Assembly: GCA_973895155.1 (NCBI GenBank)
Contig: OZ316894.1
Location: 20,218,451 to 20,282,450 of the forward strand
Source of the DNA: Marsupella aquatica
Taxonomy: Eukaryota; Plantae; Marchantiophyta
Direction of reading: 5' to 3'
DNA length: 64,000 nt
Shown here: positions 22,001-64,000 of the stretch, piece after piece
Layout of the letters: the number at the start of each line of letters is the position of its first letter
Position numbering within the stretch: the stretch's first letter is position 1
Made by a program: the position numbers and the translations under genes
The notes under the pieces: model-generated
What the model saw: the letters and a program-made list of their open reading frames with translations, nothing else
What the model was told of the DNA's origin: nothing
The model's database searches: none

Positions 22001-25000
22001 CAATTTAATTCATTCAATTGAACCCATTGACTACAAATGCAGCGCTCTGGGCCAAGCAATGCCGAATCTCACCTTTTTCGCCAAAGGAAAGGCAGCAGGG
22101 TATAAAATTTTCAAAATGATCGATCATGAGTCCATTATCAATGCGGTTGACGAAAACGCCGAAACACTTGACGTGGTGGACGGTCATATCGAGCTCCGCA
22201 ACGTCGACTTTGCCTACCCCGCACGGCCAGATGTAATCGTCTTCAAAAACTTCTCCTTGGTCATCCCTTCGGGAAAGACAGTGGCCATCGTTGGAAGCAG
22301 CGGTTCTGGAAAAAGTACTGTTGTATCACTCATTGAAAGGTTCTACGATCCCGTTGCAGGTAATCATGAAAGACTCCTCCTGGTCGTTAGCTGTTTCGTA
22401 CGCTTACATCGGCGTTTGATTTTGATCCCTAGAGATTCAAACGGCTATCAATTCAGAAATTTTACTCTTTCAATTTTCCGCGAGACTGACTGACCGACCA
22501 TAATGGATTTGCAGGCGAGGTACTGCTAGATGGCTATGACATAAGAAAGCTAAACCTGAAGTGGCTCCGAGGGCGGCTTAGCTTGGTGAACCAGGAACCT
22601 GCATTGTTCGCGACGACTATTGCTGCGAACATTTTGTATGGGAAGGATAATGCCAGTCAGGAGGAGATTGAAGCTGCTGCGAAAGCTGCCAATGCTCATT
22701 CTTTCATAGAGAAACTCCCACAGGGCTATCAAACTCAGGTGAGTCTATCGTCCTCGCATTAATTTGAGATTGAGGCTGGAGGGATAGTGCCGACTCAGTT
22801 GTCAGCTACACTTTGAACGAAAGATTTAATTTGGCTATTTAGAGTATATCTACGTTTCCAGGGTTAGGCGGCATTTGTGCATATTTGGGAGAGATCTGGG
22901 TAAAGGATACATTTTAATATGGGTCAGTGATGGACGGTGTTAATGCAAGACGACTCTCACCGGTAAGGCATGGATACATTGAGCAAATGGAACGAAATGG
23001 AATTGAATGAAATGTCCACTAGGTAAGGAAACCATGCATTAGAAAATAGTCAAAACGGGGTCTTCTGAATTGTGGGCGATGAAATAACTGGTGGAAAGGC
23101 GGGAGTGCATCGAGAACAGGGTACCAGCGGATTATTCATTAAGGCGTTGGACAAATGTTTTTCTTACAAGGGGATCAACATCAGCTCAAAATGGTAAGGT
23201 AGATGGACTTGCTCCAATAATCCTGGCTGGTTGTGATGGACTGCTTCTGTTGGCATGACAGGTTGGAGAGAGGGGCATCCAGCTCTCAGGCGGTCAGAAA
23301 CAACGTGTAGCCATAGCTCGGGCCATGTTGAGGAATCCAGCAGTTCTATTGCTAGACGAGGCCACCAGTGCCTTGGACGCGGGGTCAGAGCAGATTGTGC
23401 AGGAAGCTCTGGATCGCCTGATGGTGGGAAGGACAACCATTGTGGTGGCACATCGGCTATCCACCATCCGAAATGCCGAGAGCATTGCAGTTGTGCAGCA
23501 AGGTCAAATAGTTGAAAAGGGTAGTCACCAAGAGCTCATATCCAGAGAGGACGGGGCATATTCTGCACTAGTCCGTCTGCAGGAACTGGCTGCAACGAAA
23601 AGTGGTAGCATGAGACGCAGCTCCTCTAGAATCGGCCAATCAGAAAGGTGAATTCTCGCTCATTGTTGTGTGGTTGGTTGTCTCCTGAATAGACGCTTCA
23701 AAAACTACTCTTGTCCTACTAGGCACCCAATTCATTGAATTCACGCATGTGTCAGTCTGTGTTCACTGGCAGGATAGTCTTCACCCTTCCGACATGCAGC
23801 AGGATGGTCACAGTGTTAATCTTGGTAGAAATTCTTTCTGATTGGAGATCCTTTCAAACCACTTTAACACTCGTGATAGCTTGCGGTAGTACATGACCGT
23901 GAATTTGAAGAGAATGGAACAAATGAAAGATCCTGCTTAGAGAAAGGAGAGGAAACATTTGCAATTGCCTTAACTGTTGATGGTGCTCAGAAAATTCTTC
24001 TTTGTGCAGGATTTCACAAGGGAGCCGCTCTGGTAAATCTTTCTCCTTTTCCATGATGCGTGGTGGATCTATTAAATCAGTAGAGGTGGGCGAAGCAAGT
24101 GAAAACCTCATCCAGGAGGAGTCGCAGGAAACTTCAAAAGGATCATTCACGCGGCTCATCGCAATGTGCAAGCCCGAGTGGAAATATGGCATAGGAGGGG
24201 TCATAGGATCAATGTTGGCTGGCTGTCAAAACCCTGCATTTTCTCTCATCATAGGGGAGGTGCTCACAGCGTACTACGAGCCCAACAACAAAATGAAGAG
24301 CGATATCAGCGTGTATGCGCTCATTCTAGTGGGTATTGGTGTATTGTCGCTGTTCATCTACGTCCTGCAACATTACAGTCTCGGAGTATTGGGGGAAAAC
24401 CTCGTCATGCGTGTACGAGAAAGAATGTTATGCAGTAAGTATCACTGCCGTCTTGCCCTTCGTCTTTCTTGCTAGGTCGTAATGTTACTGTGTATTACAT
24501 GCCCATATAAATGTCGTTCCTGTTATATCGACGTGTAATACATATGGATGTTGAAGACCCCACTTCACTGAGAGCATTGATCAACAAACTTGATCTCGCT
24601 TGTTTTAGGATAGATGTTTCTTTTCTTATGAAGTGAAGTGCCTGCATTTGAGAGTTGGGGATGCCGTGAAAAAAGGCAAGATAGCATATCAAAAGTAATA
24701 GGAAGATAAATTGCAAGAGAAAAGGCACAGAACATCAGCTGTTTGAAGTGGAATCGACTTGTACACCTTAACTTCAGTACTTCGCGACATTCCTGAAACC
24801 CATTGTTTTGCCTTATACCTCAAACCTTGTCATTCGAATAGTGGGTGATTCCCTCACCTACCAGGCCTAGCTTTAACGGTAAACGTGCTTGTGGCAGCAA
24901 TCCTTCGGAATGAGCTCGGATGGTTCGACCGAGATGAGAACAATAGCAGTCAGATACTAGCCCGTTTGAATTCCGATGCAACCAATGTGAGAGCAGCTAT

Positions 25001-26902
25001 TGGCGACAGGGCGGCCGTGATCTTGCAGAACACAATGCTTATATGTATTTCTTGGATAATCTCAATCGTTCTTCAATGGAAGTTGGCTCTCGTGATCATC
25101 TCTGTTAGTCCGTTGCTTGTGTTGTCAAATATGGCCCAGGTATGCGTCCTTTTCCCGTCCCTCTTCCAGCTTTGTCTCTACCCTTTCAATTACAACCACC
25201 TGTTACGCACGAGATCGAATTACTTAAACGTAGGAGAGCTATGGGAGGTCTAATACGCTCATGGTCCTGCCACAAGAGGCCGGACGTTAAACAAATTCAG
25301 AATCCTCTCGCTCAATCTCCTGTATTCCCCCACACATAGATACCCGTATTTGAATGCATCTTCGGTGGAAATGGGAGCAGCTTATTCATGTAAAAATTCT
25401 TTGTTCGGTCGGGTGATTCTAAAATAGGTAATCATGCTTTGAATTTTTCTAGAAGAATATAAAATTCTTTTTCTCTCCAAGTATGTAAGACTATAATGTT
25501 TCTTAAAGATAGATATTAGGGTTTTCTGCAAGTATTTAACGGACACAGGTTGGTACAGGTGGGTTTGGGGAGTGACGGTGATATTTATTTAAAAAGAAAA
25601 TAGACTCCTTGAGCGATGGTTGTATAGGAAAAAGCTTGATGAATTGGTTGATTGTTGCAGAAACTGTTTATAAAAGGCTTCTCCGGAGACCTCAGCAAGG
25701 CATACATACGCGCAACACAAGTTGCCGGCGAGGCAGTGACCAACATCCGGACAGTGGCAGCATTTCATGCTGAGGACAAGATCCAAGCTTTGTTTGCAAA
25801 AGAGCTGAAAGGTCCATCAGGCAGAAGTTTTCTTAGAGGACAGGTAGCTGGATTCGGGTTAGGACTTTCCCAATGCCTGATGTACTGCTCCTATGCATTG
25901 GGCATGTGGTACGCCGGCACGCTCATCAATGGCGATGGTGCCAAGTTCGGGAATGTGATCAAGGTCTTCTTAATCTTGATCATTTCTGCAACTTCTATGG
26001 CTGAGACCTTGGCCCTCACTCCTGATCTAGTCAAAGGAGGTCAAGCGGTGGAATCTGTATTCGAGGTGCTCGATCGAAAGACGACCATTGAACCTGAAGA
26101 TCCCGAGGGAGCGCAGGCAGATAAAATATCAGGAGAGATTCAACTTAAGAACGTTACATTTGCTTACCCTTCCAGACTCGACGTAGTCATCTTCAAGGAC
26201 CTGAACTTGAAGGTTCGGTCTGGTCACAGCCTTGCTCTTGTGGGAGCCAGTGGGTCAGGCAAGAGTTCAGTGATAGCTCTAATAGAGAGATTCTATGATC
26301 CTATTTCCGGGCAGGTTCTCATCGACGGGAAGGACATGAAGAAGTACAATTTGAAGTCAGTGCGTCGACACATTGCTCTCGTATCACAAGAACCGGCTCT
26401 CTTCTCATGCTCCATCTCCGAAAACATTCTCTATGGGAAAGATGGAGCCAGTGAGGCAGAGGTGATAGAGGCTGCGAAGGCTGCCAATGCCCACAAGTTC
26501 ATCAGCTCTCTTCCGGATGGATATGAGACTCAAGTAGGGGAAAGGGGCGTGCAACTGTCTGGTGGACAGAAGCAAAGGGTTGCCATTGCTCGTGCTGTGC
26601 TGAAGGACCCTGCAATCCTCCTACTGGATGAAGCCACGTCTGCATTGGATGCCGAGTCAGAGAAGATCGTGCAGGAAGCACTCGACCGGTTGATGAAGGG
26701 CAGAACTACGGTCATGATAGCCCACCGTCTCTCAACCATCCGAGGGGCTGACACCATTGCAGTTGTTCAAGACGGTACCATTCTTGAGGAAGGTTCCCAC
26801 GACGATCTCATTGCGAAAGGTGGCGGGTATGCCCGCCTCATCAACCTCCAAAACCGCCACCAGGAGCCGAGCCAGGAGTATGGTGAAATCTCGAGGGTTT
26901 GA
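19067..26902 (+). CDS. ABCB: Full-size ABC transporter B family (MDR/PGP, ABCB1/ABCB19-like), 11 exons, ~1332 aa
   Basis: Exons 19067-19537, 20333-20387, 20585-20760, 20889-21089, 21462-21721, 22043-22359, 22515-22738, 23262-23647, 24010-24434, 24898-25139, 25661-26902. All introns are GT-AG, phases are consistent, total 3999 nt. Start context CCACCATGG. Two Walker A ([16 protein letters not shown]), two LSGGQKQR signatures, two [23 protein letters not shown] layout. Confidence 0.96.
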
Positions 26903-33759: not shown

Positions 33760-35900
33760 TCAACATTGCCTGTAATAACATGAATAGACGGAAACAGAAA
33801 TATCAGGAACAGTGTGTGTACCTGACTGAGTGGAGACCTGGTAACAAGAGTAGTGTCTCCTCTCATCATCACTGTCCACCTCCGGCAAATTTTCAGCGTG
33901 AGTCCACTCATGACTTGAGGACCGTGTGTGCTCAACAACTTTTGAAGTGACAACGACCACCAAAGGTGCCTCCACAACTGGAGATACTACAATTATGACT
34001 GATGGTACTAACTCCTCCTTGATGGTGACCAGCCTCTGCTTGGGAACGTCCACTACGGGCTCTTCCCGTTTGGTGACCAACTCCTTTGCAGGGGTGAACT
34101 CAAGCGGGTCAACCGCTTCCGTGGCGAGAAAGTTGACGTTAGCTTCTTTGAGTGGGGGTGGTGGCCCCTTCTTCTCTGGTGCTCCGGCTTGTTGAGCCTT
34201 GATTGCTTCCAAGGTTGGACAGTGTGGTGCAAGATGTCCCTCCCCCTTGCACAATTGACACAACCGGGCAAAATCTCCGTTCCCTTGACGTGTGGGCTCC
34301 GGGCACACGTTAGTGTAGTGGCCAGCCACTCTACAATTGTAACAAATAGGGATCTTTCTTACCCCCGGATACGGTGGCCTATTCCCAGGAGTAGCGTTGG
34401 AGTAGTTGGCATATGGGGGTGCTCCAGCGTTAGTTGAGATCCCATGAATGCTCCTTGGTCCCGGGTTGAGCGGCTGCACACTATACACATTGGCCTCCGG
34501 TGGCTCCTCCATGAAGTACTCGACTAGCCCCTCCGCTGCATAGGAAGAGGTTGAGTAGCTGGCTCCTTCAACGTCCTCCTCTCGTACTTGGAAAACCTTG
34601 GCTGGTTCTCCCGCTGGACACTCCTTCGGGGCATGACCAAACTTCATGCACTTGGTGCACCACACGTTGGCTCTCTCCACTGGAACCTTTCTCCTCTCTG
34701 GCTTGAGACCTGCAAAGTGCACCTTCAACGCTTTCATTTGCTCTGTCAACTCATCATACCTGGCCTCTTGCTCCTTGAGACGTCTTGCCGTAGACAATGG
34801 GGTAACGGCCACCGTGGGTAGCACAACTTCTCGATGAGTCAACTTCTTGGCCTTCTTGGACAACTTCTTCTTCCTCTTCTTTCGCTTCTCAGCTTCTGAC
34901 TTCGTAGTGTCTGACTCCATAGTGCTCTCAGAGTCCTCGGATTCATCACTACCATCCGACTTGGATTCACTTGATTCCTCACTAGAGGAACTGTCCACAG
35001 GCTTCAACTTCTTTCTTCGACAGCGCTTGCTCGTGGCATCGGTGGCAGTGTATGACTCCGCTGCTGCAATAGCCTCAGCCAATGTGGTTGGCTTGGCCTG
35101 TCGTACAAAGAACCCCATCTTGCTTGGTAGGGCAGCTACAAACCACGCTTGTCGCATAGCATCATCCGTACGGGCTTGTATCCGCCGTACTAGCTTCTGA
35201 AATCTTTGCAAGAACCTCCGTAGCGACTCTTTCTTCTTCATTCTAAGTTGACCCACCTTCAACAGGGATGTGGCTTCCACTCCAATAGATTGGAACTCCT
35301 TCAAGAATGCTTGCTTGAACAAAGCCCAATCAGCTTTCACGTTGGGTAGCAACGAGATGAACCAGGGGCCTGCCTCCCCCCTCATCATTCCAGGAATGAT
35401 AGTGAGCTTGTGGGCAGATTCTCCATTGGCTTTAGCAATCCTTCAACGTCTTATTCGTCTGGGTCATCTTTTGGTCTTCCCTTGAAGGGTATGTACTGAA
35501 CATGGGTATGTTGAGCAGCTGCCATTGGTGCAGCTGGTCCCTGTATCAACACAGGCGGTAATGGCGTATGTTGGGCCACTGGTAAGGGCAATGCTGATAG
35601 GTGTGAGATGATTTGTGGCAATGCAGTGAGCTCTGGGATCAGATTTGGCCGTAACTCAGACTGCACCAACACAAAGGGCTCCCCTTCTTCTAGCACATGA
35701 TCTACGTCTGGCTCTTCGTCTGGACGTATGGCCTCATTGTGTTGAGACCCTTCTTGTGGCACACCAACTTGTTCTTCTAGCTCCCGTGGCAACCTTCTCT
35801 CTTCTGCAAGCCGTAATCGTCCTTCGGCAGCAACCCAAGAGGGCACTCAGTCTAGCTCAGGCGTACGTGAGTGTTGGGGGCTTGCTCTTCCTCCCCTTCT
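33760..35900 (-). pseudogene. gag: Ty3/gypsy gag (capsid plus three CCHC zinc knuckles), frameshift/stop near 35450, no pol downstream
   Basis: Retrotrans_gag-like MRGEAGPWF...WALFKQAFLKEF...KESLRRFLQRF. Knuckles CTKCMKFGHAPKEC, CYNCRVAGHYTNVC, CQLCKGEGHLAPHC. No protease, RT or integrase motifs follow. Confidence 0.85.
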
Positions 35901-46914: not shown

Positions 46915-47903
46915 AACACGATTTCGGACCGAACGAGAACTATTTCCTCTAAACGAGAAGTGTATTTTCATTTTCTGCCGAATCTCACAAAATCGGCACT
47001 TTTTTTCATCAAAAACACGTTTTTGGGGAAATAATGTAATTCGTATTGGAGTTCGGATTGAAACAACAAATTTAATAATGATCAAAACCAATGAAATTCA
47101 TGCTAACAAACATTCATATTATCAAGGAACAATTAGATCCGAAAAACTTTCTCCTCAACCTCATATTCACGCTCTCTGAAGATATATGAAAGGTCTTATC
47201 TATAAATCCATATCCACATTTCGGGCCAAGTGCAATAACTGTATCGGACTCCAAATTTGAGCCACGAAAGCTCCGACCCAATCTCATTTTTCTCAATTTT
47301 TGGATATTTACCAAAAATATTTTACATCACAGTCGATAAGAATTACTGCACGGTTCGTCAAACTTACCTTGCAGTTACCTCCGCAATTGACCAGTTACCT
47401 CTGCAAGTGACCATAGTCAACATGCCATTCTTTCAACAGCAATGCGCAGTCCGATAAAATTATCGCGAAAACTACGGGCGACAAAAATACTAGTCGACAA
47501 TACTAAGATCCTTCGGTTCATCGGTTAAATTTCAAAATTCCTATCCATATGAAGAAAACTCTTCGCAATACCAACATCAGATAAATTTATCGCTTCAATT
47601 TCAAAATTGCAACTTCCATATGAAGGAACCACTTTTGCAATACCAACATCAGATAAATTTATCGCTTCAATTTCAAAATTGCAACTTCCATATGAAGGAA
47701 CCACTTTTGCAATACCAACATCAGATAAATTTATCGCTTCAATTTCAAAATTGCAACTTCCATATGAAGGAACCACTTTTGCAATACCAACATCAGATAA
47801 ATTTATCGCTTCAATTTCAAATTGCAACTTCCATATGAAGGAACCACTTTTGCAATACCAACATCAGATAAATACACTCTGAACCACACAACCCGAAGTC
47901 AGG
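46915..47903. mobile_element. Unclassified non-coding insertion interrupting the copia 3' LTR (one end only)
   Basis: LTR identity is lost abruptly at 46915. AT-rich, carries a 72-bp array, and is cut at 47904 by the CACTA terminus. Confidence 0.55.
47528..47872. repeat. 72-bp near-perfect tandem repeat, ~4.7 copies
   Basis: Unit starts at 47597, 47669 and 47741. Each unit contains the palindrome GATAAATTTATC. Confidence 0.95.
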
Positions 47904-48987
47904 CACTAGTAGAAAACAATGTATTTTATGACCGAAACAATGACTATTAATCAGGTCTTTTTAACAAAACAATGACGCAATTGTTCTCGTCTTTCCAGAC
48001 ACGTCACAACGGACATTTTGGTCACGGTCCTTTTGGACAAATGACGCTAAAAACATGTGGTCATTTCATACTATCCTAAATGACCATTTTTATGATATGG
48101 TCATAAATGTTGAACGGTCCAAAATGATGACACAAATCACCATCGACGGTCAATTGCCGTTGACCGTCGATGGTCCCCGTACCCAATCACACAACGACAC
48201 GTGGCAATAAAAAAACAAATAACATTGGTCATTTTGGACTTGTCCAAAATGACGTACATTATATAACAAATCAAATAGTGACACGTGGTTCAAAGAGGAT
48301 TCACCATTTGGCAATATATTTGGGTCATTTTGGACGTGTCCAAAATGACTATAGTATAAACAAGTCATATTGAGACACGTGGTTCAATTGGGAGAAGACA
48401 CGTAAAGATATACATTAGTCATTAATGACATGTCTTGAATGACATAAAGTGAGTCATAGTGGACTTGTTTATAATGACCATGAGAAAGGTCATTGTATAT
48501 GTCATTCTTTGAATCATTTAGTCTATGTCTTTAATGACCAGAGTTGAGTCATATTGGTCACAAAGATAGTTGTGAATAATGACCATTACATCAGTCATTC
48601 TAGCCAGTCATTTAGTCATTCAAGCCAGTCATTCAGACGAAGTATTCAATGATTTGGAGAAATTCAAATTTAAGTGATCATGATAGATAAAACTTGATGT
48701 CAATCAAAAATCATATATTACAAAGCCATTCAATAGAGTTGCTAAATGAAAACTTAAAGAAACATTCGATATATATCACAAATCCAATTGATATTCATAC
48801 AAGATACCTTCATAAGTCTCACGGTAAATATTGAACTCAATGCAAATTTATGAAACAAAATTACATTGACATCAATAATATTAGATTGTCAATTGTTACA
48901 ACCTGACATACCAATCACTCTGCATGTTTATAGAAAAACAGAGTTGTCATTCTATCATGTCTATTGTTTCTTGATAGAGTGCTATTT

Positions 48988-51824
48988 CTATTGCTTCTTA
49001 AGCAATCTAGAGTTCCATAGGGCATTCATCCCTTTCACATCAGATAATTTAGACTGGTTCTCCCCTGAATTGGCAAATGGCAATGCCACATCTACAAACA
49101 CTTCAATCACACGCACTCGCAAGAAAGGGCTTTCAAAATCTGCACAATGAAACTTATCTTCTCCTGGCAGCCCTGTCACCTCACCTTCTGCCACTATCAT
49201 GGAATTGTCCACAACGCTCTTCATCTTCACCAAATCTCCTCTTGCAAACTATGAACAACACATTTTGTTAAAAATGCAATAAACAGAAATTGAAAGATAG
49301 AAGAACACTCAAATCAAACACACATTTACCTTTGCAACGGGGTTAGGAGACTGCATTGGTTTCTTCTGTGCAGGTGATGCATTTGCTGAGGATCCTTTCT
49401 TCCTTTTCTTCTTTCCCTTTCTAGTTGATGGAGTGTCATCCTGTTCACTTGGAATGGGAGTTTCTTTTGGCAACTCAGATGATTCTGGGGTTACATCTGG
49501 TGTCAACTGAGTCGACTTATCCTCTGGCAACTGAAAGGCATCTGAAATGGCTTCTTTGGGCAACTTAGATGGCAAAAGGTTCACTTCCAATTCAGTTTGC
49601 TTTAGAGTATTGTTAGCTATGTCAGTTGGTCTTCCCTGCGACACAGGAGGCTCCCCTAAAGATGCTGTCATAAAACACACACAAAAGAAATGCATAAACA
49701 AACATGTATACACCAGCAACATATAATCACACTAAAAACATGCAAGAACATTATAAACATGCAATGACATATACACATCACAATAATTACATTGAATGGA
49801 CAGTGTATACATGATAGAGAATTTTACCTTCATTATCGCCTGAAAAAGTAAGAGATCGCTTTCTACTACCTTGTTTGGTAGTTGTAGTCAACTTACTGTG
49901 ACTAGGCACAACTGTTGGAACTTGTGCATTACTGGGGTGATGTGCCATCCACGTAGTCATCATGTTTGTCAACTCCCTCACAGTGCCTTTCAACTCAGCG
50001 ACATCCAATTTCACAGCCCCAATGGCAGTGATCTCTTCTTTTGAATGTGGGGTCTGTAAATGAACCACAAACCAACACAACAGTCTCACTGTCAAACTTA
50101 CAAACGACACAACACTGGCTCTGTCAAATGGAGAATGATGTACAAATCAAATTGGTATGACAATACTCACAGCTGATCCATGTCTGTTTCCTTGCCCCAG
50201 TAAGCTAGCACTTTTACCCTCCCCACTTGCCAATGATGGGCTCACCTTTGCTCCCACAAAACTACCAGTCTGACCTTCTGCACTTGCCAATGATGGGCTC
50301 ATTGTCACCTTTGGCAATGAACCCTGACTACCATGGTTTTCTTTCAGGTCAGATATACCTGGGCTTGATCCTCTCTTCTGCTTCTGTTCAAACCCACAAT
50401 GAATGAGAAATCACAGAGTTTGTTTTCATCAAGATTCACAAACAAGACAGAATTGATAGTGAAAATGATAGACAATTTACCATTCTCTTTGCTGCTGCAG
50501 CATGCCCTCCCCTTCCAAAGTGAGAGGTATCTTGCACTCGTGCTCTTTTATCAGTCATCTATTTACTCAAAGATATCAATGCTGGACTGGTAAAATGAGA
50601 TACCAAAGCTGCCCATTTCTTTGGATCAACACCAGATGGCCCAGGTTTGGTTGGATCCTCATTGCAAACTTTCTTCCAATAAACATGCATTTTATGGCGC
50701 TCTCTCTTCAATATGCCACGACAATGACTCTGGAATTTGGTGTTAATAAATTCCCCACCCACATACTCCCACTCAGCTGCCATGTTATTCCACACTGTGG
50801 TTGTATGAACTTGTGGATGATCAATCCATTTTGGCTTTGATACATCAAAGACTCTGAGTACGTTGCCACGAAGTTCCTCCAGCCAGTATTGTTTGTTGCC
50901 ATCAGAATCATCAATATCATTGTCATAAATCTGCATTTCACAGACAATGTCAGATCATAACTCTGGAATTTATGCAGAGTCCAGGTTTTATACACACAAC
51001 AACAGAGAGGATCAGATTTGTCTAAATCTACAAACAAGTACAATACTCACTTTAATGTGTTTGGGCATCTCTCCGCAATCCCTTCGTTGTTTGGCAGTAT
51101 TATCAAACTGCTTCTTAGCATGCCTTCGTTCCCTGCGCATCTCAGAGGCCCCTCCTGCAATGCACACACATGCATTCAATCAAAAAATATGTACATGATT
51201 GAAAAGTTGAGCAAATGTACTTGCATATGCATGACGAGCATATTGTGTATTACCTGAAGATCCTCTGGAATGTAGTACATCAGATTGACCTGATCTGCCT
51301 TTAGATGCTGATGGAACCACTAAACAAACACACAACACCAAAGCACTTCAATTAATTTCATTTCCAAGTAGAATATCAACTTCCAAACACACCTGAAAAG
51401 TAGAACAGTACAATCCACTCACTTTCATATAAGAGTCCAGTGTCTGGGTCTTTCCAACATCTCACTAGCCCACCTCCACCAGGCCCAGTCTTCTTAGGAC
51501 CACAATTTTGTTTCTGTACCTACATCATGGACAACGTAAGCATATCAACATATAATTTGAAAAAGGGACAAGGATCCCTTCCTATTAGGATGATGAAGTT
51601 CAAGCATTACCTGTTGTGCACTCTCTGGTTCTGACCCTCCAATGTCAGAATCCTCAGTGTCATACTCAGAAGGAGAACCATAGCCATCATCACCAAACTC
51701 TGCCATGTTCACCTTGGTAACTTCTGATAGTCTAGAGCTCCTCCTCTTTGGCAATGTTTCAGTTGAAGTACCTTTCACCAAAGCAGGCTTTCCTCTCTCT
51801 CGTTGTACATGTGTGGTTGGGCCT
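48988..51824 (-). CDS. Multi-exon CACTA second gene, TnpA/Ptta-like (exon boundaries only partly resolved)
   Basis: A series of short minus-strand ORF segments bounded by AG/GT (e.g. 51824-51611, ~50931-50481, ~50053-49828, ~49665-49330, 49248-48988). ILKRERHKMHVYW...PSGVDPKKWAALVSHF resembles the TnpA core. It lies downstream of TnpD. Confidence 0.6.
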
Positions 51825-52253
51825 CTAAGGAACAAAGCAATCATCAACATACACCAATGCAGATCAAACATACATGCAAAATGAATCTACAACACCGTAA
51901 CACTAGTACTTATGTACAGGATCCATACTAGTATGAGACCAATCTGGAATATGAAAACAGAACATGAACCTGACAACTCCATCTACTGAATCAAATTTGC
52001 AATAGACATATCAACACACACATCAGCTTGCAGTCTGGCCCCAGTCCTAGATCACGCATAATTCTGACATTATGCTCTATGTTCCGATTTCGGGCCTCCT
52101 CATAAGGATTCACAGAATGTGACAACCCTTGCAATCTTCCTTTCACAGGCTGCATTCACCAACTGCACAAATGGGTAAACCATTAGTCTGATTTCATAAA
52201 TAGTCCATACATGTAGTCCATCTATGGACTTCACACACCTAGCTAAAACCTAT

Positions 52254-55200
52254 TCACTGCTTAGGCCTGCCCTTTCTTGCAGATCCCTCTGCATCTCTGC
52301 CTCGTTTGGGACCAGTACTTGGTCCTGGATTTTCTCTGGACCTACAGGCCTTAGCCAATTCGATGTGTAATTTGGCATTGTTTTCCATTGTAGCATGGAA
52401 ATCAACGTCTGTGTAATCACCTAACACCCTTGTGGACCTGGATTCTTTGTGGAGGATTGTTCTCCATGCTATCCCCTTCTCATTGGGGTGGAAGAAAACC
52501 TGCTCCACTTGCTTTGGGAAAACGTAATCCATTTTCTTGGACACACCCAGTTCTCTATGGAAATTCACCTGCCAAAGACCAGACTTGGTATACCTCATAC
52601 TGGCTGAGGATTTAGGAGTCCATGATGGATCTGCCCATTTCCCTTTGAAAAGAATCACCTCTTTCCTCAAGCTGCCATAATTCAGTACCAAGATATCTGT
52701 CAAGGCCCCTACATACTGTACAGATTCTTCTATGGTTGCACCAGACCTGTCCACTCGCTTCTCAGTGAATGTAGAAGCCATCCCAAAATCAAAAGTGCTG
52801 AAAGCACCAGAATCACAATCACTCAAACACCCCAAGGATGGAATAGTCCTCCAATGGTGCCCATAGGCTCTACATGCCCTATACAGTCGTGCCTTCAAAC
52901 TAGGTGGTGTGGAGTATGCAGATAGTAATGACCGCTCAGACTCTTTCTCAAAATTATGGGTATTGACTAATGTTTGAAACCATTCCCTGAAAGGTGGCAA
53001 TTCTTGGCAGTCTACGGGAAATTCCACTGGTTTTCTTCGATTGGCAGGCTTCCTCATCCACTCCTTCCGGAAATCCACTCTTCGTTTGGTAACAGTCTCA
53101 TTGGTAGCATCATATATCCTGCATGGCAACAACAACACTGAAGACATTAGTGCACGATCCACCATGAATATACAAACACAATGGGGCAACATAATTATGA
53201 TCCATATGCCTAAGGATAGGAGAGTTTCTAGGGTTTATGTACCTGTACCATGGAGCCACTGTCTCTTCATTCTCTAATATATAATGATGCATGGCCATCA
53301 TTTCAGACCAATCCAAAGTTATCGCCTTTGCAGCCCCTTCCAAAACAATGCCTGCAACGCCAGCATCCTCCTCCAACTCCCAGGTTTGTTTTCCCTCTCC
53401 CTTTGCATCAATCATGTATTCAGAAAGAAATCCCAAAGACTCATCTAATACATAGCCTTCAGCCATAGAAGCCTCTGGACGTGCCTTGTTTCGTACATAA
53501 CCCTTCAATACCTTCAGGTTCCTCTCTATTGGGTACATCCATCTGCCTGTAACTGGGCCACACAAGTCTAATTCCTCCACTAGGTGAATCATTAAATGGG
53601 TCATGACATCAAAGAAGCTTGGTGGAAAATGGATTTCCAAAATGCAGAGAGTGAATGCAACATCCATCATCAAATTCTCATACATTGAAGGGTCCCACAC
53701 CTTCGTACAGATCTGGCGATAGATATTGCTCACCCCAGCTATGGCCAAGCGAACCCCTTCATCAAGTAATCCCATTGTTGCCAGAGGGAGAATCTGTTGC
53801 ATGAGTTGGTGGAAATCATGTGATTTCAACCCAGAGAGTTTCTTGGATTTTGTAACACACTTTGCCAAAGAACTTGAAAAACCAGTGGGCCCTTTCAAGG
53901 TCAATAAAACCTCCAAGAACCTTGTTCTTTCCTTCTTGCTCAGGCAATATGGGGCTGGGGGCATCAACAATTTGTCATCCTTACGCTTGGGAGCTGGATT
54001 GGGTACAAGCCATAGGTGTTGGCGCACCTGTAAGAGCTTCATGTCTTCTCTCACAGAAGGAGTGTCCTTGGTCCCAATGATAGTGTGCACAATGTTGTGT
54101 GCAAGATTCTTCTCACAGTGCATGGGATCTAGACAATGGTTAATGAGTAGTTTCTGCAGTGGACACACAATTCAGAAATTAGGGCATTGAATACAACTTT
54201 TGGCATCACTGGGCAGTAGTTTGTGCAGTGGACACAATTCAGAAATTAGTGCATTGAATACAACAATTACAAAATCTAGGCTACAGGAAGTATATGAAGA
54301 GAATATATTTCAAAGTCATATGAAGAGATTGAAGAAATTCATTGTAGTAGTATGGAGTCTTACATTCAATAGGGCAACTTGTACAGACCAGTAGCCCTCT
54401 TCACTCCATGCACCTTTATGGGGCATTTCTCATCCTCAACCTTGGTTCCTCCCTTCTTCAAATATTCTGTTGTCTCGTCTCCCCACTTCTTTCTATCAGA
54501 GCTTGTCATTCTACACGGTGCAGGTCGACTCTCAATTGCACCATCAAAGTATTGTGCACTATCTGGTCTACGAAAAAGATGCCTTGCTGCTAACCATCGA
54601 CGGTGGCCACTGTACTCTAATTTCTGCAAGTGCTTAGAACCACGTGCCACACATTCTGGCCCACAGATGACACATCCTTTGTATCCAGAGTGTTGTTGTC
54701 CAGATATTAAACCATATGCAGGGTAATCATTGATTGTCCACAATAGCACAGCCCTAAGGTTGAAGTGTTGAGACAATCCTGGGCGTGGCAATTTGTCAAA
54801 GCAGGGCACTCCTTTCTTCCACAACAGCTCCAACTCCTCATAGAATGGGCCCAATATTATGTCTAGCTGTTCCTCTGTTACTGAATCAGGTCCTGGAATC
54901 AGCATAGCTAGCATGACAAAGAACTTCTTGGTGGTAAGCCAAGGAGGTAAATTGTAATTCAACAACAGTATTGGCCAGGTAGACCAAGCTGTGGAATTAT
55001 TCCCAAAGGGATTCACCCCATCAAGTGCCAACCCAAATCGCACATTCCTTGGTTCAGCTGCAAATTCCCGATCAATATTTGTATCCACATGCTTCCAAGC
55101 CTTTGAATCTGCTGCGTGCCGAACCATGTTGTCTGTGCTTCTATTCTCATGATGCCAAGTCATGAGTTTAGATGTACCAGCAGTGGCATACAATCTCTTC

Positions 55201-56222
55201 AACCTAGGAATTATAGGGAAATACCGCACTACCTTCCTTGCCTGTAATGAATTCCCCACTCTCTTCATCTTGGGCTGCTGACACACTGAACAGTTTTCTA
55301 ACTTGGCATTCTCACCCCTAAAGAGCATACAACCTTTCTCACAGACAGGGATTCTCTCATAATCCAAGCCAAGCTTTCTCAATAGCTGCTTTGCAGCATA
55401 TAAGTTCTTGGGCAGATTATGCTCTGTAGGCATACCATGCTCCCCCATCAAAGACAACAATGCATTCACTCCTTTGTTTGAGAATCCATGGCCATGACAG
55501 ATGTTCAGCAGAAGCAACATGAATGACACAACATCTATTTTGCTGCCTGGGAACAAAGGTTGCATTGCTGCATCTAAAGATAACTGTGCAAGATCAGTCT
55601 CCACAGGAGTTTTGGAGGTTTCAAGGGGGTTTACAGGATGGGCACCTCCTTCACTCTCATCATCCCCAAGTACAAAATCCAAGTCAAAACGGTCCTGATC
55701 ATCTAGCTCATGCTCAGGGGATTCTTCACTGGTTCTCAGCAACGTTTCTTCCAGTAGAGCCCTGATATGTTCTTCGACATCTATAGTTGGATGTTCTTGA
55801 ACATCCACAGTTGGATACTCTGGAACATCTACAAATAAATGTTCTTCAACATCTACAGTTGGCTGTTGTGCACAGGTTGCCTGCTGAAGGTTTGCTACCC
55901 TCAATGCCTCAGGGCCATGTTGTGACATGTAGTCAGCACCCCACTCTTCATCAGAAGAGTCCTGTCCCTCTCCCACCCACACTCGACATGCAGGGTACCG
56001 ACCATGATTAATAAGGTGCAGTCTAGCAGTATTCCGATTAGTCCTATAATTCCCTTTGCAGTTCACACAAGGGCAGTACATCTTATGGTCCCCACTCTTG
56101 TGGCAGGCCTTCTGTTCTCGAACCCACAAAGCATCATCACGATGTTGTACTCTAGCTGGATGGAAGAGCAGCAACTTTGGAGTTCTACCCACACCTAACA
56201 TATTCTGTGGCAATTGTGCCAT
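52254..56222 (-). CDS. CACTA TnpD transposase (Transposase_21 + DUF4218 + DUF4216-like), 3 exons, one lesion at the end of exon 1
   Basis: Exons 56222-54364, 54153-53243, 53118-52254. Motifs RYFPIIPRLKRLY, PRNVRFGLALDGVNPF, LLWTINDYPAYG, DPMHCEKN, LSGLKSHDFH, FPPSFFDVMTHL, RWMYPIER. The conserved LPYW reads LPY* (TAT TGA AT|gt), consistent with a 1-nt deletion. Confidence 0.93.
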
Positions 56223-56822
56223 GCTAGCTTGATTGAAATTGTATTCAAACTATGATTTTCAAACTGAATCAGAGTGACATGCATACAAAATTGGGCCTAC
56301 CGTCACAGTTGTACAACCGATGCCAACCACAGTCCAATTGCTCAAACCCACAGAGCCCAGTTTCTCAAATCCACTGAAGTAGGGCACCTTCTCCTTCTTG
56401 CATACAAATAGAGCATCACATACAGTGTCATCAGAATGATACTATGAACGTAAATCTCTGTGCCTTCATCATTTCCAGTATTTGTTTGCCTATTAGGAAT
56501 GTGAGCAGACAGGTCTGGAATAAGTAACGTTTGTGACACCAGTGACAAATTTACAAGTGAAGTTTAGACATCAATATGGAGGAAAGTCACACTCAAAGCA
56601 CATGCTTGAAAATCGGAATCCTACCCTGGAAAAGATAATAAAGTTGATTTCTCAAAATTAATTGCCTCAATCCGCAATGCACTGTCGTAGAGTGTGTATA
56701 CATGAGGAGTTCATCAAACTGCATATAAATAGTCCACATGTTTTAGCACTCTGAAAATTGTTTAACTCCACGTGAAACCATCAAAAAGCTCTATCTCAAG
56801 TTTGTGTTCCATCCAGCCTCAA

Positions 56823-57482
56823 TCAAATCCAAGATACGTGGCTCCTAGCCGGAGTGCCTAGTGTAGGGTCAATGTCATGGTCAGGACAGTAAAACATCCC
56901 CTTCTTGGGCTGCCCATGCGCTGAGTGATCCCAAATTGTTCGATCATGGGCAAATCCCCTCTGTTGGATAAACAGCAGGCAGTCCTTGTGCCATGCCTTA
57001 GGACACCTCATGCACTGAACCAAAAAGCCATTAGCCCCATCATTGGGCCCCTGTCCACAAGTAAGACAAATATGGAGTCCACATGATGCTGTGCCAGGAA
57101 CCAAACACTGCCGACAGTAAAACCGGGCACAGAGAGAGTCTGGACATTTTCTTACCTCTTCACCAATTTTTCCAGACACATGGCACTTAAAGCAAGAATG
57201 TTCCTCATTCTTGCAATCAACACAAAGCCATTCTCCAACATGGCCATCAGCGAGGGATATAGTTGGGCATAGCCATTGTTGACCCAAAGGACAGGAAACA
57301 TTCTTATGGAAATGTCGGTGGCAAGGCCCATCACAAACAATGAGATCCCCTCCCTCATCACAAATCGCACATACATGTGGACTATTCTGGTTAATCTCAA
57401 TGTCTGAATATAAGGACAATTGAGGTGCTTGAGAGGATTCACCTCTGCAACGATTCATGGCCTTCTGCTTATTGCGAGCCAT
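56823..57482 (-). CDS. EDM2/NSD-type composite PHD-finger protein (219 aa) carried inside the CACTA element
   Basis: Intact ORF from ATG 57482, preceded by the acceptor TGCAG|GACC. VCAICDEGGDLIVCDGPCHRHFH...CVDCKNEEHSCFKC...CARFYC...LHICLTC...CMRCPKAWHKDCL...IWD...FYCPDHDIDPTLGTPARSHV follows the cysteine spacing and C-terminal YCxxHxID...TPxRxH motif recalled for EDM2. Confidence 0.8.
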   Translation of the reverse strand: MARNKQKAMNRCRGESSQAPQLSLYSDIEINQNSPHVCAICDEGGDLIVCDGPCHRHFHKNVSCPLGQQWLCPTISLADGHVGEWLCVDCKNEEHSCFKCHVSGKIGEEVRKCPDSLCARFYCRQCLVPGTASCGLHICLTCGQGPNDGANGFLVQCMRCPKAWHKDCLLFIQQRGFAHDRTIWDHSAHGQPKKGMFYCPDHDIDPTLGTPARSHVSWI

Positions 57483-60239
57483 GGTCCTGCACACTCAGAC
57501 CCTACATCAGATTGTGAAACAAGAAGGAATAACAGGGTGCAGCATGACACAAAAGAATGAGGGTGCAGCATAAAATATGACATGTAACCACAAGGGTGCA
57601 GCATAAACCAATGCTTTATAGATGGCAAAGCATTTAGGACTGAGCAGCGCAAATAACCTTGGCCTATGATTGGAAGCAATCACAAATATTGCAACCTGTA
57701 TGCCTTCGCTTGCTGTACAGCAGTGCTCACTCACCCTGCCTTTTTAAAATCTGTAAGGGCAACACAGAACAAATAGCAATTGAGTTTCAGCAAAGCATTC
57801 ATTTGGCTCTCAAGTTTTAAAATGGACAAAGCAAACACAACAATGTGCACAACAAAGCACAGAGAGCAACAAAACTCCAGCAAACTGGGACTCAGGCAAG
57901 AGATACGAATTTTAGCAGCGAAATCAAATCAAGATTCGGACCTGTGAGTTCAACATGCAGTGCTCACTCACCCTGCCCTTTTTTAAATCTGTAAAAATCA
58001 AGTTTTATTGTGTGCCTTCTACATCTTAAGCTACTGCACACATCTGTTACAAAACCATAAGTTGCTTTACTCTCAACAAGCTGCTGGTCCACCCACTTTT
58101 TCAAAAGCTGCACCGTACTCTATCTTTGTGCACAAATGACTATACCGGGCTGCTGTCAGAGACCCTTACGAAGAATTTAAAATTGACCAAGCTGAGTTTA
58201 GTTTAGTTTCGTCCAGTTTGCAGACCAAAGGAAATCATGTGGCTGTATTCATGGAGTTGTATTCATTGCTGTGTATGGATGTTGTGTGAACATCAGACAA
58301 TTAGCTGTAAATTACCATAGTTGAAGAGCAAGGCTTGTACAAAAGCCACTAAGGAATTCTCTGAAGTGGCACAGTAGTTGGCAAACCACACACAAAACTC
58401 TGAAACTTTTTGGCGACAAAATTCTACAGAGTCGCTGCTGGAATCAAGTGAGGATTCACCATACATGCCTGCACTTCTCTTCAGTAAAAAAAAGAGAAAA
58501 GAAAAGGCTATGATACAGAGGGATGTCAAAAGAAGAGTAAGGAAACCAAATTTTCATTGAGGAACATAGACAGACTAAGGAAAACATCATACAATGGAAA
58601 ACTAAGGACTACATTGTAATAATAAGAGATCAAGCTCACCTTGCACCACAAAGATTGTCACGACTCACCTCGCAGTTCCTCGCAGCTTAGGTCCAGGATG
58701 ACATTTCAATATGGAGGAAAGGAGTTTACTCATTTAAAACAGAGAAGGAGTGGCATCTACAGGGACTTTGGCAGCACACTGAAAAGGTTGGCAATACATC
58801 AGGTTATCTTTCTAGGTTGACACTGCCAATAGAATTTTGAACACAACAAACACAACAAACACTGCCAGATATAGAATTTTGAACACAAGGGTATGGCATC
58901 CTGATTTGCCTAACTCAATCAACTTAATAGCATATTTTTATGTTCAATTAGGCAGCACTAAATAGAACAGCCTTTCACGCAGTCAGAATAATTGGCAATA
59001 ATTGCCAGACGACAACAAGACAACAAACTGAACTGAACATAGCAGACAAATCCAACAAGTAGCAATCAGAAATCAACAGCAGACAGACAGAGGACAACTC
59101 GGTCAGAACTCGGGCACTTGATTTAGTTGTGGTAAATAGCCGTTCAAGTTCTGGACAAGCAAGAGCAATACGTGAGCAGACTCCAGAAAAATCATCTCTT
59201 GAGATTGAGGAGAAAGGCATTCCCCAGCCAGCTTACCTATGTCTTGAAAAATGTATCGGACATCGTGGATGCTGCCTCAGCTGCTGGCCGCAAGGGAAGA
59301 TTTTGCCAAAACAAACAATAAAGCTCGAAGATAGTTAAATTTCTTAGGTCATTCTAAATGGGGACTGAATTAGCAATTAGAACCAGTAAACCCTGATCTT
59401 GGGCAAGCAGAGAGAGAAGACTCTGCGCCTAATACTTATGTCTACCCGAATTTTACTGGGACATATGAGCATTGGGATGGCATTGCAAAGCAGAATTTTG
59501 TAGCAGTGGAAGGAATCAACATAGATAGCAGTGGAAGGCCGCAGTGGAGCTAGCATGGGACAGGGAAGGAAATGCAGGCACTTGTGATGCAAAGGCTATA
59601 GAGGGCGAGAAGGTGGACAACCAAACTCAACAAACTCAAAGAACATGTAGCAAATGGCAATAGAATTGAAGATCAGAGAACCTGAGTGGGCAAAAAATTG
59701 ATATAGATTGTAATGGGCAATAAAGAAGCTCAACCGGGAGACTAGCAGTAGTGGAGACAGTTCCGTCTTAAATGGAAAAGGAGAGATATATACAATAAAG
59801 AGAGACGTCCTTTAAAGTAGAAATTGTCTGAAAAGTAAGTGCAGATAAGTGCATGCAACAGGAGCGGTCACATACAAATTGAGCAATCCTCTCAAGGCTA
59901 CAGAGGGCGAGAAGGTGGACAACCAAACTCAGCAAACTCAAAGAACAAGTAGTAAATGGCAATAGAATAGAAGATCACAGAACATGTAGCGAATGGAGAG
60001 GGATAGATAGAGAAAAAACATAAGCAGAGAGCTCTGACACACAGCAACACAGGTCCCAACACAACACATTGCAGGTCCCAGGCTGGGGTGGAGCCGGAAG
60101 TGGAGAGCACAGAGCAACCAGGCAAATCACAGCATGGGCGCCAATGGGAATAAGGTCAATACCTTTGAGGCGGAAGCTAGCAGGCCTCAACTTGCAGGTA
60201 GCAGCTTGTGCTCTGCTGCCTTCTGCAAGTAGCTTGCAC

Positions 60240-60725
60240 TCTCAGCTTCCGCAATGAGTCGCCCTCTCCCCTTTCGCAAGCAGCTGCTCGACCTCTCCCC
60301 TTCCGCAAGCAACTTGCCTTCTCCCCGTCCGCAATCAGGTCACCTCTCCCCTTCCGCAAGCAGCTCGCACCCACTTAAAGAAACAAATGTTGAGACCAAA
60401 CAAACAACCGGCTCCCTTCCGCAAACTCCACAACCTCTTCAAGAAGCTATCGTCGACCTTCCGCAGCAAGAATCATTTCCTCCCTGCTTTCACTGCCTCC
60501 ACGAGCTTCCATAGCAATCGCCTTCCATGATGATCGGGGCCCCAGTGCGCAAATGCCTTCCGCATCCACCTTGCGCAGCTTGTTGCCGATCGTAGCTCCT
60601 CACCCACAGCTCGTGACCCGCAGCTTGTCGCTCGACTGTTTCTGATTGTGTCCGGCTCTTCCTTCTGCAGCTCTTCCCTTCCGCACCTCCAACCTCACGC
60701 AACTCCTCCCCTCCCGCAACTCCAC
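60240..60725. promoter_or_regulatory. CpG-rich region with repeated CTTCCGCA motif; candidate CACTA promoter/leader
   Basis: CTTCCGCA occurs near 60246, 60300, 60351, 60416, 60458, 60557 and 60678, upstream of all three minus-strand genes. Function is inferred. Confidence 0.4.
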
Positions 60726-61039
60726 CCTGTGCTAGTCTAGCAAATGTGCTCGGAAGAGTGTCGAAGCTTGGTGGAGGCAATGCACAACGCTGCGCAACCC
60801 TAAGCCCTTGCAATGTGCACACAAGGCATGCCAAGAAAAGAGCACATCGAGCATTGCCCTCTCCGTCGATGTTTTTTCAGGAAAAAGGGCTCCTGTTGGT
60901 ACGCGAGAACACTTGAGGAGGAAAAACCTAAAGCTGGATGCCTAAACCCCGTAAAAGTAAGGTATTTCTCCAGATGGGGATGGTGGATATTGTACGTGGG
61001 TCATGAATTAGGTTCTATTCTGACAATCTCTCATATGTC

Positions 61040-61235: not shown

Positions 61236-61479
61236 GCTGTTTGTGTAGGTGCCAACAAGAATGTTAAGGACCAATGTTATATATAAAAAATCATGCCCGC
61301 GATATAAAAGGTCTTTTTGGACCAAGGGAAGACTACATATGAGGCTATGTTGTCTAAGAGTTTTTGAGAGCATTACACCAAAGCATTAACAAGTGAGCCT
61401 TCCCATGACTATATGACCTCCAATATGCCAACATTAATGGCTTCCAATATGACAGCGTGAGTGACCCCACGTTTAGTCC

Positions 61480-64000
61480 TCAGATTGAAGCACCATTTAA
61501 TTCACAAATGATCCAATGAACTCCCTTGTACCTCCAAAGAGAACCCCCCAATAGCCTTTGTAAAGACCACATTTCTGGAGTGCCCCTTTACAATTCCTTT
61601 GGAATTTAATAGAATATATCCAAAATCCAAATATCGGCACAAACATGACATAGTTATATAGAAGGACATAGTCTTCCACTAGTATTGCACTATATACCTC
61701 TTGGAGAGACAAAAACAATTTTTGTATGCATGCCTTAGGATGGTATGCATGCATGGTGACACTTTTGGCAAATCACTCCAAAGTTGTATGACTTGGGAGT
61801 GATTTCCCCAAGGTTGCATCATCCCTTAAGTAATTGCAAAAACATGGCTCCAAAGTGCTCATGGTGCAACTAGTGGTTGGAGAATAGTGGGTATAGTACC
61901 CCGCACCTTGTGGAGAGGTTGCCACCTTCATGTAGAGCCCCATGGCACACTAGGGCCACCTTAAGCTCCTAGACCCAAAAGGGTCATTTCTGATGGTCCG
62001 TAATGACACCATGAGGGACCTCTATAATGACCCCATATGGAGTCATTTGGCACAAATGACTTCCAAAAGGACTGCCAAAATGACCCTTACTACAGTCTTT
62101 GGCATTAATGACACACTATTCCTCCAAAATGACCCAATGAAGATTACAACACCTACTCACAATGCCCCGACACTATTCATATGCAAAATGGAGTATTCCC
62201 CATCCAAACACCGGCACAAACATGACACAATTACATCACAAGATGACAACCTTCCATTGGTGTTGCGCTACTTCTTGGAGAGACAAAAAATGGCTCCATT
62301 TGCGCTTGGATACGGTGGTATGCATCCATGGTGACACTTTTGGCAAATCACTCCAAAGTTGTATGACTTGGGAGTGATTTCCCCAAGGTGCATCATGCCT
62401 TAAGTAAATGCAAAAACATGTGTCCAAAGTGTTCATGGCACAACTAGTGGTTGGACGATGATGAGTATAGTGTCCCGCACCTAGTGGAGGGGGTTCTCAC
62501 CTCTATGTGGGGCCCCATGGCACTCTAGGGCCCACCTCCAGCCCCCAGCCCCAAACTGGTCATTTGACTTATGTGACAGCCCATATGACAGATTTAATGA
62601 CCCTACTTGTAGTCATTGGTATTTATGACACCAATTTTTTCAGAAATGACTCAATGAAGATTACACTACCTTCTTGAGTGCCCCATCACTATTCATTTAA
62701 TAGAATATTCCCCATCCAAACACCGGCACAAACATGACACAATTACATGGAAGGACAACAGCCTTGCACTACTTCTTGCAGAGACAAACAAAATGGCTTC
62801 ATTTCCTTTAGATAGGATGGTATGCATCAATGGTGACACTTTTGGCAAATCACTCCAAAATCGTACGACTTGGGAGTGATTTCCCCAAGATTATATCATC
62901 CCTTAAGTAAACACAAAAACATGGCTCCAAACTGCTAATGGTGCAACTAGTGGTTGGAGAATAGTAATTATAGTATTTGACACCTAGTGAAGGGGTTGCG
63001 AGCTCTATGTGGTGCCACATGGCACTCTAGGGCCCACCTCCAGCCCTTAGCTCCAAATTGGTCATTCATGTTTGTCTTCAATGACTGCACTAGAGACCCC
63101 TCAAATGACAACAAGTCCAGTCATTTGAATTATATGACATCCCATATGACCAATTCAATGACCCTACTTGTGGTCATTGGCACTTATGACATGACTTTGT
63201 TAAAAAATGACCCAAAGAAGGTCCTAGTACCGCTAGAGAGAGCCCGCTCTACATTCCTTGCAAAAATGGAATAATCGTATACCTTTAAACACCAGACACA
63301 TCATAGAGGGAAGCACCACTGCCACACCCATTCCATTGGTGTTGCGCTACCTCTTGGAGAGACAAAAAAGGGCTTCATTTGCGTTTGGAACAGTGGTATG
63401 CATCCATGGTGACACTTTTGGCAAATCACTCCAAAGTCATACGACTTGGGAGTGATTTCCCCAAAGGTGCATCATGCCTTAAGTAAATGCAAAAACATGT
63501 GTCCAAGGTGTTTATGTCGCAACTAGTGGTTGGACAATGATGAGTATAGTGTCCCGCACGTAGTGGAGGGGTTCTCACCTCTATGTGGGGCCACATGGCA
63601 CTCTAGGGCCCACCTCCAGCCCCTAGCCCCAAACTGGTCATTTGTGCTTTTCCTTAATGACTGCATAAGGGACCCCTCAAATGACCACAAATCCAGTCAT
63701 TAGACTGATATGACTCTCCATATGACAGTTTTAATGACCTTGCTTTTAGTCATTGATATTTATGACGGTCCATTGCTCACATATGACCCAATAAAGGCCC
63801 TAGTACCTCCAAAGAGAGCCCGCTTTAGATTCCTTGCAAGGTTGGAATATTCCTCTTCCCTAAGCCCACACCCACACCATACAGGGAAGCACGACTCCCC
63901 TGCCCATTCCATTGGTGCAACACCACCTCTTGGAGAACCCAAAAACAACTTTTATTTGCCTTTGTATGTGATGGTGTGCATGCATGGCAACACTTTTGGC
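61480..64000. repeat. ~575-bp tandem repeat (at least 4.5 units) with alternating A/B subtypes
   Basis: Anchor TGGTGACACTTTTGGC at 61754, 62329, 62831, 63407 and (variant) 63985. Spacings are 575, 502, 576 and 578 bp. Confidence 0.9.

Follow-up and report, generated by a model that had tools for sequence, protein, structure and literature searches.

Transposable elements (TEs) that encode their own anti-silencing factors are known from few flowering-plant families, and those factors act through DNA sequence. The VANC proteins of VANDAL elements bind specific non-coding repeats (PMC10398659), and the TnpA protein of Spm is transposase-derived (bioRxiv 10.64898/2026.08.24.746577). Among host proteins, Arabidopsis EDM2 binds H3K9me2 and affects more than 2,000 TEs (PMC7529245), and together with ASI1 and AIPP1 it acts on polyadenylation in intronic heterochromatin (PMC9292364). 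Accessory domains have been described in CACTA/En-Spm transposons, Chenopodium Jozin among them, and include ULP1-type Peptidase_C48, Transposase_24 and captured fragments. Here we describe a CACTA element of the liverwort Marsupella aquatica (contig OZ316894.1, positions 20,218,451 to 20,282,450; the whole 64,000-nt stretch analysed is called the window) that carries, beside its transposase gene TnpD, a standalone open reading frame (ORF) for a triple PHD cassette of the EDM2/NSD type. The arrangement is real, selected and transposon-borne, and it is apparently undescribed. We found no description of an EDM2-type cassette in a CACTA element in the literature, with Repbase, subscription journals and supplements outside the search, so prior annotation may exist. 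The term 'PHD' is absent from the main texts of PMC8978399, PMC13547354, PMC13317346 and bioRxiv 10.64898/2026.08.24.746577, and EDM2 is unmentioned in PMC11982613.

The ORF runs on the minus strand from an ATG at 57482 to a TGA ending at 56823 and encodes 219 aa, while the plus strand of the same interval is interrupted by stops. Pfam places PHD_NSD (E 5e-8) and PHDvar_NSD (E 2e-7) on it above their curated cut-offs, with PHD-1st_NSD (E 4e-4) and generic PHD below cut-off. All 24 Cys/His ligands of three fingers are legible (C38-C90, C97-H137 and C139-H202), and the cassette occupies residues 36-215, or 82% of the protein. Among solved structures in the PDB, NSD3 gives the best sequence match, through its internal PHD cluster (E 2e-10). 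Unlike NSD1/2/3, however, the ORF has no SET or PWWP domain, and the NSD match ends at residue 167, leaving the plant C-terminal extension unmatched. A search among longer proteins returned one match from 1323 candidates. That match, to an EDM2-like protein of Chenopodium quinoa, has 29% identity, spans query residues 26-216 (pairwise E 3e-20) and takes in the C-terminal extension after PHD3. The AlphaFold2 model, built on a 98-row alignment, has a mean per-residue confidence (pLDDT) of 88.6 and a predicted template-modelling score (pTM) of 0.82, and is low only over about the first 25 residues. In fold comparison the best hit, the PHDvC5HCH pair of NSD2, is middling only (Z 5.4, root-mean-square deviation 2.5 over 74 residues), and Foldseek and VIA matches are weak and yield no more than 'tandem PHD'. 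The ESM Atlas returned solely NSD/EDM2-type PHD clusters, with a top score of 0.90 in Streptophyta. The predicted domain assignment is well beyond chance. A preliminary description of this locus had proposed a stop-free ORF made almost entirely of tandem PHD-like fingers with EDM2/NSD-type similarity, and both points hold, on the minus strand.

With EDM2 and EDM2-like proteins (Arabidopsis EDM2, Selaginella XP_002976689.2, Marchantia MPTK1_2g00350, MPTK1_1g03210 and MPTK1_4g03050, and Physcomitrium LOC112285981) the ORF shares the triple atypical PHD, the ligand spacing and the C-terminal extension, at 33-39% identity over the cassette. Unlike EDM2, it is without the RFD, the acidic regions, and the ELP methyltransferase-like and proline-rich parts, it belongs to a separate long-stem clade, and it lies inside a transposon. 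Further, the acidic stretch before PHD1 has been lost and a His ligand of PHD2 has become Cys. By sequence, then, the ORF is not an EDM2 orthologue and is EDM2-derived or EDM2-related. It stops directly after the cassette, in line with the earlier proposal that only the reader module had been taken. The coding part is intronless, as also proposed, because it is colinear with EDM2 and two related loci (L001 and L002) are likewise uninterrupted by introns. An AG with a pyrimidine tract stands immediately before the ATG, and an untranslated exon upstream is therefore likely.

The ORF lies inside the CACTA element because it is located between two regions rich in the subterminal ATGAC motif. These have 33.9 (47904-48700) and 17.3 (61400-64000) motifs per kb; the density falls to 2.4 in the interval that separates them and to 2.2 elsewhere in the window. 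The left terminus is at 47904; no second end matching it was found within the 64-kb window, and the right-hand repeats run off the window's end, with the right terminus outside it. TnpD follows 600 nt downstream on the same strand, as the preliminary description had it, with Transposase_21 (E 3e-66), DUF4218 and DUF4216 spread over three large exons. Domain searches gave no family match for the frames at 48988-52155, and the ESM Atlas nothing usable for the last exon. The element shares its terminus, subterminal repeats, TnpD domain order and the presence of extra cargo with other accessory-domain CACTA transposons. Unlike theirs, its cargo is a separate, complete and selected gene upstream of TnpD, and a chromatin-reader cassette. 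The base composition of the ORF matches that of the element (CpG observed/expected 0.30 and GC at third codon positions 0.42, against 0.19-0.24 and 0.43 for TnpD), unlike that of a neighbouring host ABCB exon (0.65 and 0.54). The CpG-rich stretch at 60.2-60.9 kb, with the AG and pyrimidine tract, suggests that splicing would allow the ORF to be expressed from the promoter of the element. Set against the majority contigs of sequencing runs X1-X3, TnpD here carries a deletion of one base at 54366, which brings an early stop just before the likely splice donor. Consequently, the copy is probably non-autonomous, unless the missing base reflects an assembly error. The preliminary description mentions neither this deletion nor the H3-like N-terminus treated below.

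The left flank of the element is itself composite. A Copia retrotransposon has its 5′ long terminal repeat (LTR) from 40839 and a 3′ LTR that stops at 46914, with 84 of 85 bases identical. Between this cut LTR and the CACTA end lies about 1 kb of unexplained repeat (46915-47903) with a 72-bp minisatellite. In all four runs its contigs are about as deep as those of the CACTA end next to it. The stretch may be carried along with the CACTA element, or it may be a separate repeat that hosts the insertion.

Copies of the ORF are numerous. Seven of nine listed sequencing runs, covering four organism codes, contain the ORF stretch. In run X1 a 1204-nt contig of depth 701 spans 56382-57585 gap-free with eight differences, and in run X3 there are 393 contigs on a 701-nt ORF stretch. 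Contig depths are relative, and summed depth is not copy number. Because the X1 ORF contig is unbroken at a depth near that of the TnpD contigs beside it (771-888), most element copies appear to carry the ORF. Across the 37 listed ORF variants from four runs, 22 are synonymous and 15 non-synonymous, where the expected synonymous share is 0.21. The ratio of non-synonymous to synonymous polymorphism (pN/pS) is 0.18 (p 4e-7), or, when transitions are given a weight of 8, 0.29 (p 1.5e-4); the rows mix different copies and organisms and do not count as independent branches. A high-depth subset of 17 variants has ten synonymous and seven non-synonymous changes (p 0.0008-0.011). Start and stop are conserved, and the stop is kept in relatives. 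Decay is also seen among copies: one low-depth contig alters ligand C90, two carry indels, frameshifts are seen on single low-depth contigs, and L001 and L002 have premature stops. Purifying selection on the ORF in a multi-copy CACTA element is thus supported by the variant pattern, and we consider it highly probable that this is a selected accessory gene, useful to the element. Evidence of a single copy, a position outside the element, neutral evolution or a lack of EDM2/NSD similarity would each have told against the preliminary description, and the data give none of these.

Relatives of the standalone kind occur beyond this element. A near search found three relatives among seven candidates, all equal in length to the ORF protein and 52-82% identical to it, and a profile search found 509 proteins at E ≤0.001; among the 150 listed, 14 were assigned to the short family, five of them outranking every long EDM2. 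The family has 34 invariant columns in nine rows at 38-84% identity, and its Zn ligands are invariant. Of 156 proteins, 148 yielded a long module and 8 did not; the trees use chosen subsets of 72 and 54 of these modules. In the larger, 13/13 family rows fall on one side of a branch; in the smaller, 9/9 group together (support 100/100) and fall outside land-plant EDM2, with a stem of 1.05 changes per column. This outside position may be a long-branch effect, and joining the family to liverwort paralogs that end at the cassette was not rejected (approximately unbiased test, p 0.35). Since the standalone relatives form one clade on a long stem at 37-84% identity, the capture of the cassette would be old. 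Because the family is no closer to one of the liverwort, moss and non-seed EDM2 groups than to another (36-39% identity) and the joining was not rejected, the donor was probably some EDM2-family gene, not narrowed to EDM2 proper. The earlier suggestion that EDM2 itself was the source is not supported; liverwort and moss EDM2-like paralogs are already without the C-terminal methyltransferase-like part. W164 was considered as a diagnostic of the liverwort paralogs and dropped, as it occurs also in moss proteins and most non-seed EDM2, and no donor is named.

Several observations on these proteins stand apart from the question of the donor. Six liverwort and moss EDM2-like paralogs (P0012, P0013, P0015, P0020, P0022 and P0038) end soon after the PHD cassette, without a methyltransferase-like region. 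The seed-plant EDM2 clade contains seven PHD-only proteins of 270-386 aa (P0092, P0096, P0118, P0130, P0025, P0039 and P0069), three of which start M-A-R-x-K. They appear to have been reduced to this cassette independently. All 14 family proteins for which a source was looked up are from Logan, JGI/IMG or ENA, with none in NCBI or UniRef. A metagenome scan for related loci gave 3 of 123 stretches, in one of which (L003) the match covers only 23 residues, and none were found in 61 stretches of viral contigs or 47 of prokaryote genomes. L001 (1.9 kb) and L002 (1.5 kb) do not reach a transposase; the upstream DNA of L001 looked similar to the window on visual inspection, a likeness dropped when blastn did not recover it. 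We infer that the whole standalone family may be CACTA-borne.

The cassette has been remodelled in ways that bear on what it binds. In the six residues before the first Cys of PHD1, Asp or Glu occurs in 0/15 family rows, against 132 of 135 parsed host EDM2/NSD-like proteins. The fifth ligand of PHD2 is Cys in all 12 parsed family rows (six are unparsed); among the 128 host rows that could be parsed, 126 have His there. PHD1 retains the GG-D-L strand and an invariant D51 in the family alignment. In PHD fingers that bind unmethylated H3K4, an acid in the corresponding position contacts the lysine. The composite PHD of Arabidopsis EDM2 is reported to read H3K9me2-containing marks. Given the family-wide residue changes, EDM2's H3K9me2 preference is not to be assumed for the cassette, and the label 'intact heterochromatin reader' attached to it earlier is not supported. 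Within the NSD family, too, homologous fingers differ, and some bind no histone peptide (PMC8398374). The host adds a further consideration: in Marchantia H3K27me3 covers a large fraction of TEs, and in a hornwort H3K9me1 with H3K27me1 lies on most TEs (bioRxiv 10.1101/2022.10.24.513474). The Arabidopsis H3K9me2 frame may not carry over to a liverwort host. The cassette is a natural minimal EDM2 module with two family-wide changes, useful for finding what this poorly understood module binds.

Ahead of the cassette, the protein begins M-A-R-N-K-Q-K-A, identical at five of nine positions to H3 residues 1-9 (H3 as printed in PMC8166343); in P0001 seven of nine are identical. Human H3 N-terminal mimicry proteins (H3TMs) fit the pattern iM-small-R-x-K, with iM the initiator methionine, as the ORF does; it is found in 48 of 20,996 human proteins (PMC8166343). 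The ORF is, by comparison, a predicted TE protein that also carries PHD fingers. The strict pattern stands at the called start of 7/17 family rows, the window protein included; two rows are cluster mates of a third, and three rows without an N-terminus and one near-copy were excluded. The rows are related and their starts machine-called, the ATG of the window ORF being likewise predicted. Across 11 motif-anchored rows, position 7, which was not anchored, is Ala in seven, as in H3, and from position 10 no residue exceeds 4/11. A start of the form M-[AST]-R-x-K occurs in 3/158 EDM2/NSD-like and 0/120 ABCB proteins. Several EDM2-like proteins of liverworts, Selaginella and other non-seed lineages (P0012-P0016, P0021, P0033, P0065 and P0079) also start M-A-R, as the ORF does; most seed-plant EDM2 start with an acidic stretch. 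It is possible that an H3-like tip was ancestral on EDM2.

We speculate that the ORF protein is an element-directed anti-silencing adaptor or decoy, acting for the element's own copies, and put the probability of this reading at roughly 0.4. The cassette would have entered an ancestor of the element long ago from an EDM2-family gene, with an mRNA as the probable intermediate, and the element's 5′ promoter, through alternative splicing, would now give rise to the ORF. No DNA-binding family is among the Pfam matches of the ORF, and the protein would reach element copies through a TnpA-like or TnpD protein; specificity would come from such partners because global anti-silencing is thought costly. 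At those copies the cassette might engage partner proteins of the host EDM2 pathway or displace them, and the H3-like tip might occupy host enzymes or readers acting on H3K4/K9, with the outcome that a long element is transcribed despite silent marks. The role of the donor family supports anti-silencing by analogy, since EDM2 proteins aid transcription through TE heterochromatin. In Arabidopsis, Spm elements activated by TnpA keep H3K9me (bioRxiv 10.64898/2026.08.24.746577), which leaves room for a second factor. The lost acidic stretch and the H3-like tip appear to fit interference better than plain nucleosome docking.

Several points weigh against this proposal. Purifying selection is equally compatible with any useful function. 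The transposon context is seen for this element family only, the distant relatives lying on short contigs. Known TE anti-silencers (VANC and TnpA) are sequence-specific or element-encoded demethylation factors, not readers (PMC10398659), and edm2 mutants shift TE silencing both ways (PMC3632883). The tip may be a plain basic localisation signal, and an M-A-R start is also found in 18/158 host EDM2/NSD-like proteins; at least three family rows are without the motif at any register, and self-docking of the tip was unsupported in two AlphaFold2 models, in which it has a pLDDT of 54-58 and no strand.

The preliminary description drew a parallel with VANC. What stands is a functional parallel at best, because VANC is sequence-specific and the ORF protein is without a recognised DNA-binding domain. 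VANC, TnpA and the ORF share the state of a separate TE-encoded frame and a likely role in chromatin conflict; the ORF differs in being host-derived, and it is not a VANC. A more specific form of the anti-silencing proposal is a liverwort CACTA histone mimic, in which the H3-like tip would bait H3K4/K9 writers or readers and the EDM2-derived cassette would have been rewired from histone to partner binding. We regard this form as unlikely; if true, it would be histone mimicry of viral style in a plant DNA transposon and a third anti-silencing route beside VANC and TnpA. More broadly, a CACTA element with its own selected host-derived reader cassette points to another way of handling silencing, in a lineage with a different mix of TE marks. 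As the protein is small and Marchantia is transformable, the question is directly testable.

The main rival is that the protein serves the transposase as an insertion-targeting subunit. RAG2 tethers RAG1 to a histone state, and the cassette could similarly read a histone state, tether the TnpD complex and steer new copies into TE-rich chromatin. The proximity of the ORF to TnpD on one strand is what this model expects, and PHD1, with the GG-D-L strand and D51 retained, resembles the H3-binding fingers of AIRE, TRIM33 and CHD4. PHD fingers are, moreover, known in transposases such as Rehavkus (PMC6446971), and this copy sits among other repeats, adjoining the cut Copia LTR. Yet all 15 rows have lost the acidic stretch before PHD1, the H3-like tip is left unexplained, and little can be concluded from one insertion site in a TE-rich window. 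Further, PHD1 shows no aromatic cage residue where such fingers usually have one, so targeting to H3K4me3 is unlikely. We consider insertion targeting doubtful as a whole.

Next in order comes a free, genome-wide decoy that titrates host EDM2-like partners or H3-tail writers with no element specificity. Viral histone mimics act in this way (PMC8166343), and the reader-only architecture, the remodelled pocket and the H3-like tip would all suit it. Global anti-silencing is, however, considered costly for TEs and uncommon among them (PMC10398659), and a shared benefit should mean weak selection on family copies, yet the gene is selected; such a decoy is accordingly quite improbable. Slightly less credible still is a standalone family made up mostly of host genes, from which this CACTA lineage made only a recent pick-up, with selection older than the capture. 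The genomic context of distant members is not visible, and short PHD-only EDM2-like proteins do exist in the seed-plant EDM2 clade (P0025, P0039, P0092 and P0118). Against this, none of the 14 looked-up proteins is in NCBI or UniRef, though annotated liverwort genomes supply other groups; both fetched loci are intronless and decayed, like TE copies; the ORF has the base composition of the transposase; and the synonymous excess is seen among copies of this very element. Least likely, and already largely refuted, is a passenger without protein-level use or a fragment kept as camouflage for resembling a host gene, because, for all that CACTA elements often carry gene fragments or extra domains, that camouflage has been proposed (PMC8978399; PMC13317346) and that decayed copies exist, the low pN/pS, the invariant Zn ligands and the conserved start and stop speak against it, and 36-39% protein identity to the nearest host groups is too low for camouflage at the DNA level to be plausible.

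Features of the CACTA element and its PHD ORF, in window coordinates
Feature	Position	Strand	Basis
CACTA terminus and subterminal repeats, ATGAC motif 33.9 per kb	47904..48700		First 13 nt identical to the terminal inverted repeats of Chenopodium Jozin
Short exon-like frames in the TnpA/ORF2 position, assigned by position only	48988..52155	-	
TnpD exon with DUF4216, below curated cut-off	52254..53234	-	Pfam
TnpD exon with DUF4218	53110..54171	-	Pfam
TnpD first large exon, ATG 56222, Transpos_assoc and Transposase_21; early end at one-base deletion	54366..56249	-	Pfam
Standalone EDM2/NSD-type triple-PHD ORF, intact	56823..57482	-	ORF calling, Pfam, PDB sequence match, EDM2-like alignment, variants, AlphaFold2
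PHD finger 3 (C139-H202) and EDM2-like C-terminal extension	56826..57068	-	
PHD finger 2 (C97-H137); Cys as fifth ligand, against His in hosts	57072..57194	-	
PHD finger 1 (C38-C90); GG-D-L and C-D motif kept; His in place of acidic stretch before C38	57213..57371	-	
Basic N-terminal tip, residues 1-10; fits M-small-R-x-K; 5/9 identities to H3 1-9	57453..57482	-	
GC-/CpG-rich stretch, CpG observed/expected 0.75, short tandem repeats; likely promoter or first exon	60200..60900	-	
Repeats of about 576 bp with the same ATGAC motif, 17.3 per kb; other subterminal region, terminus beyond window	61400..64000		

Elsewhere in the window, a host ABCB-type transporter gene occupies 18980-26902 on the plus strand, and its last exon (25652-26902) best matches Calypogeia fissa at 86-87%, which points to a leafy liverwort as the likely host. 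Two long frames of 318 and 804 aa lie at 1-3449 (plus strand); the 804-aa frame has no Pfam match and may belong to another transposon. A GC-rich, strongly skewed low-complexity repeat at 8362-9735 has long open frames on both strands. A Ty3/Gypsy-type Gag (Retrotrans_gag, with zinc knuckles) is found on the minus strand at 33760-35442, and an extra LTR fragment at 7578-7792 is 85% alike to the Copia 5′ LTR.
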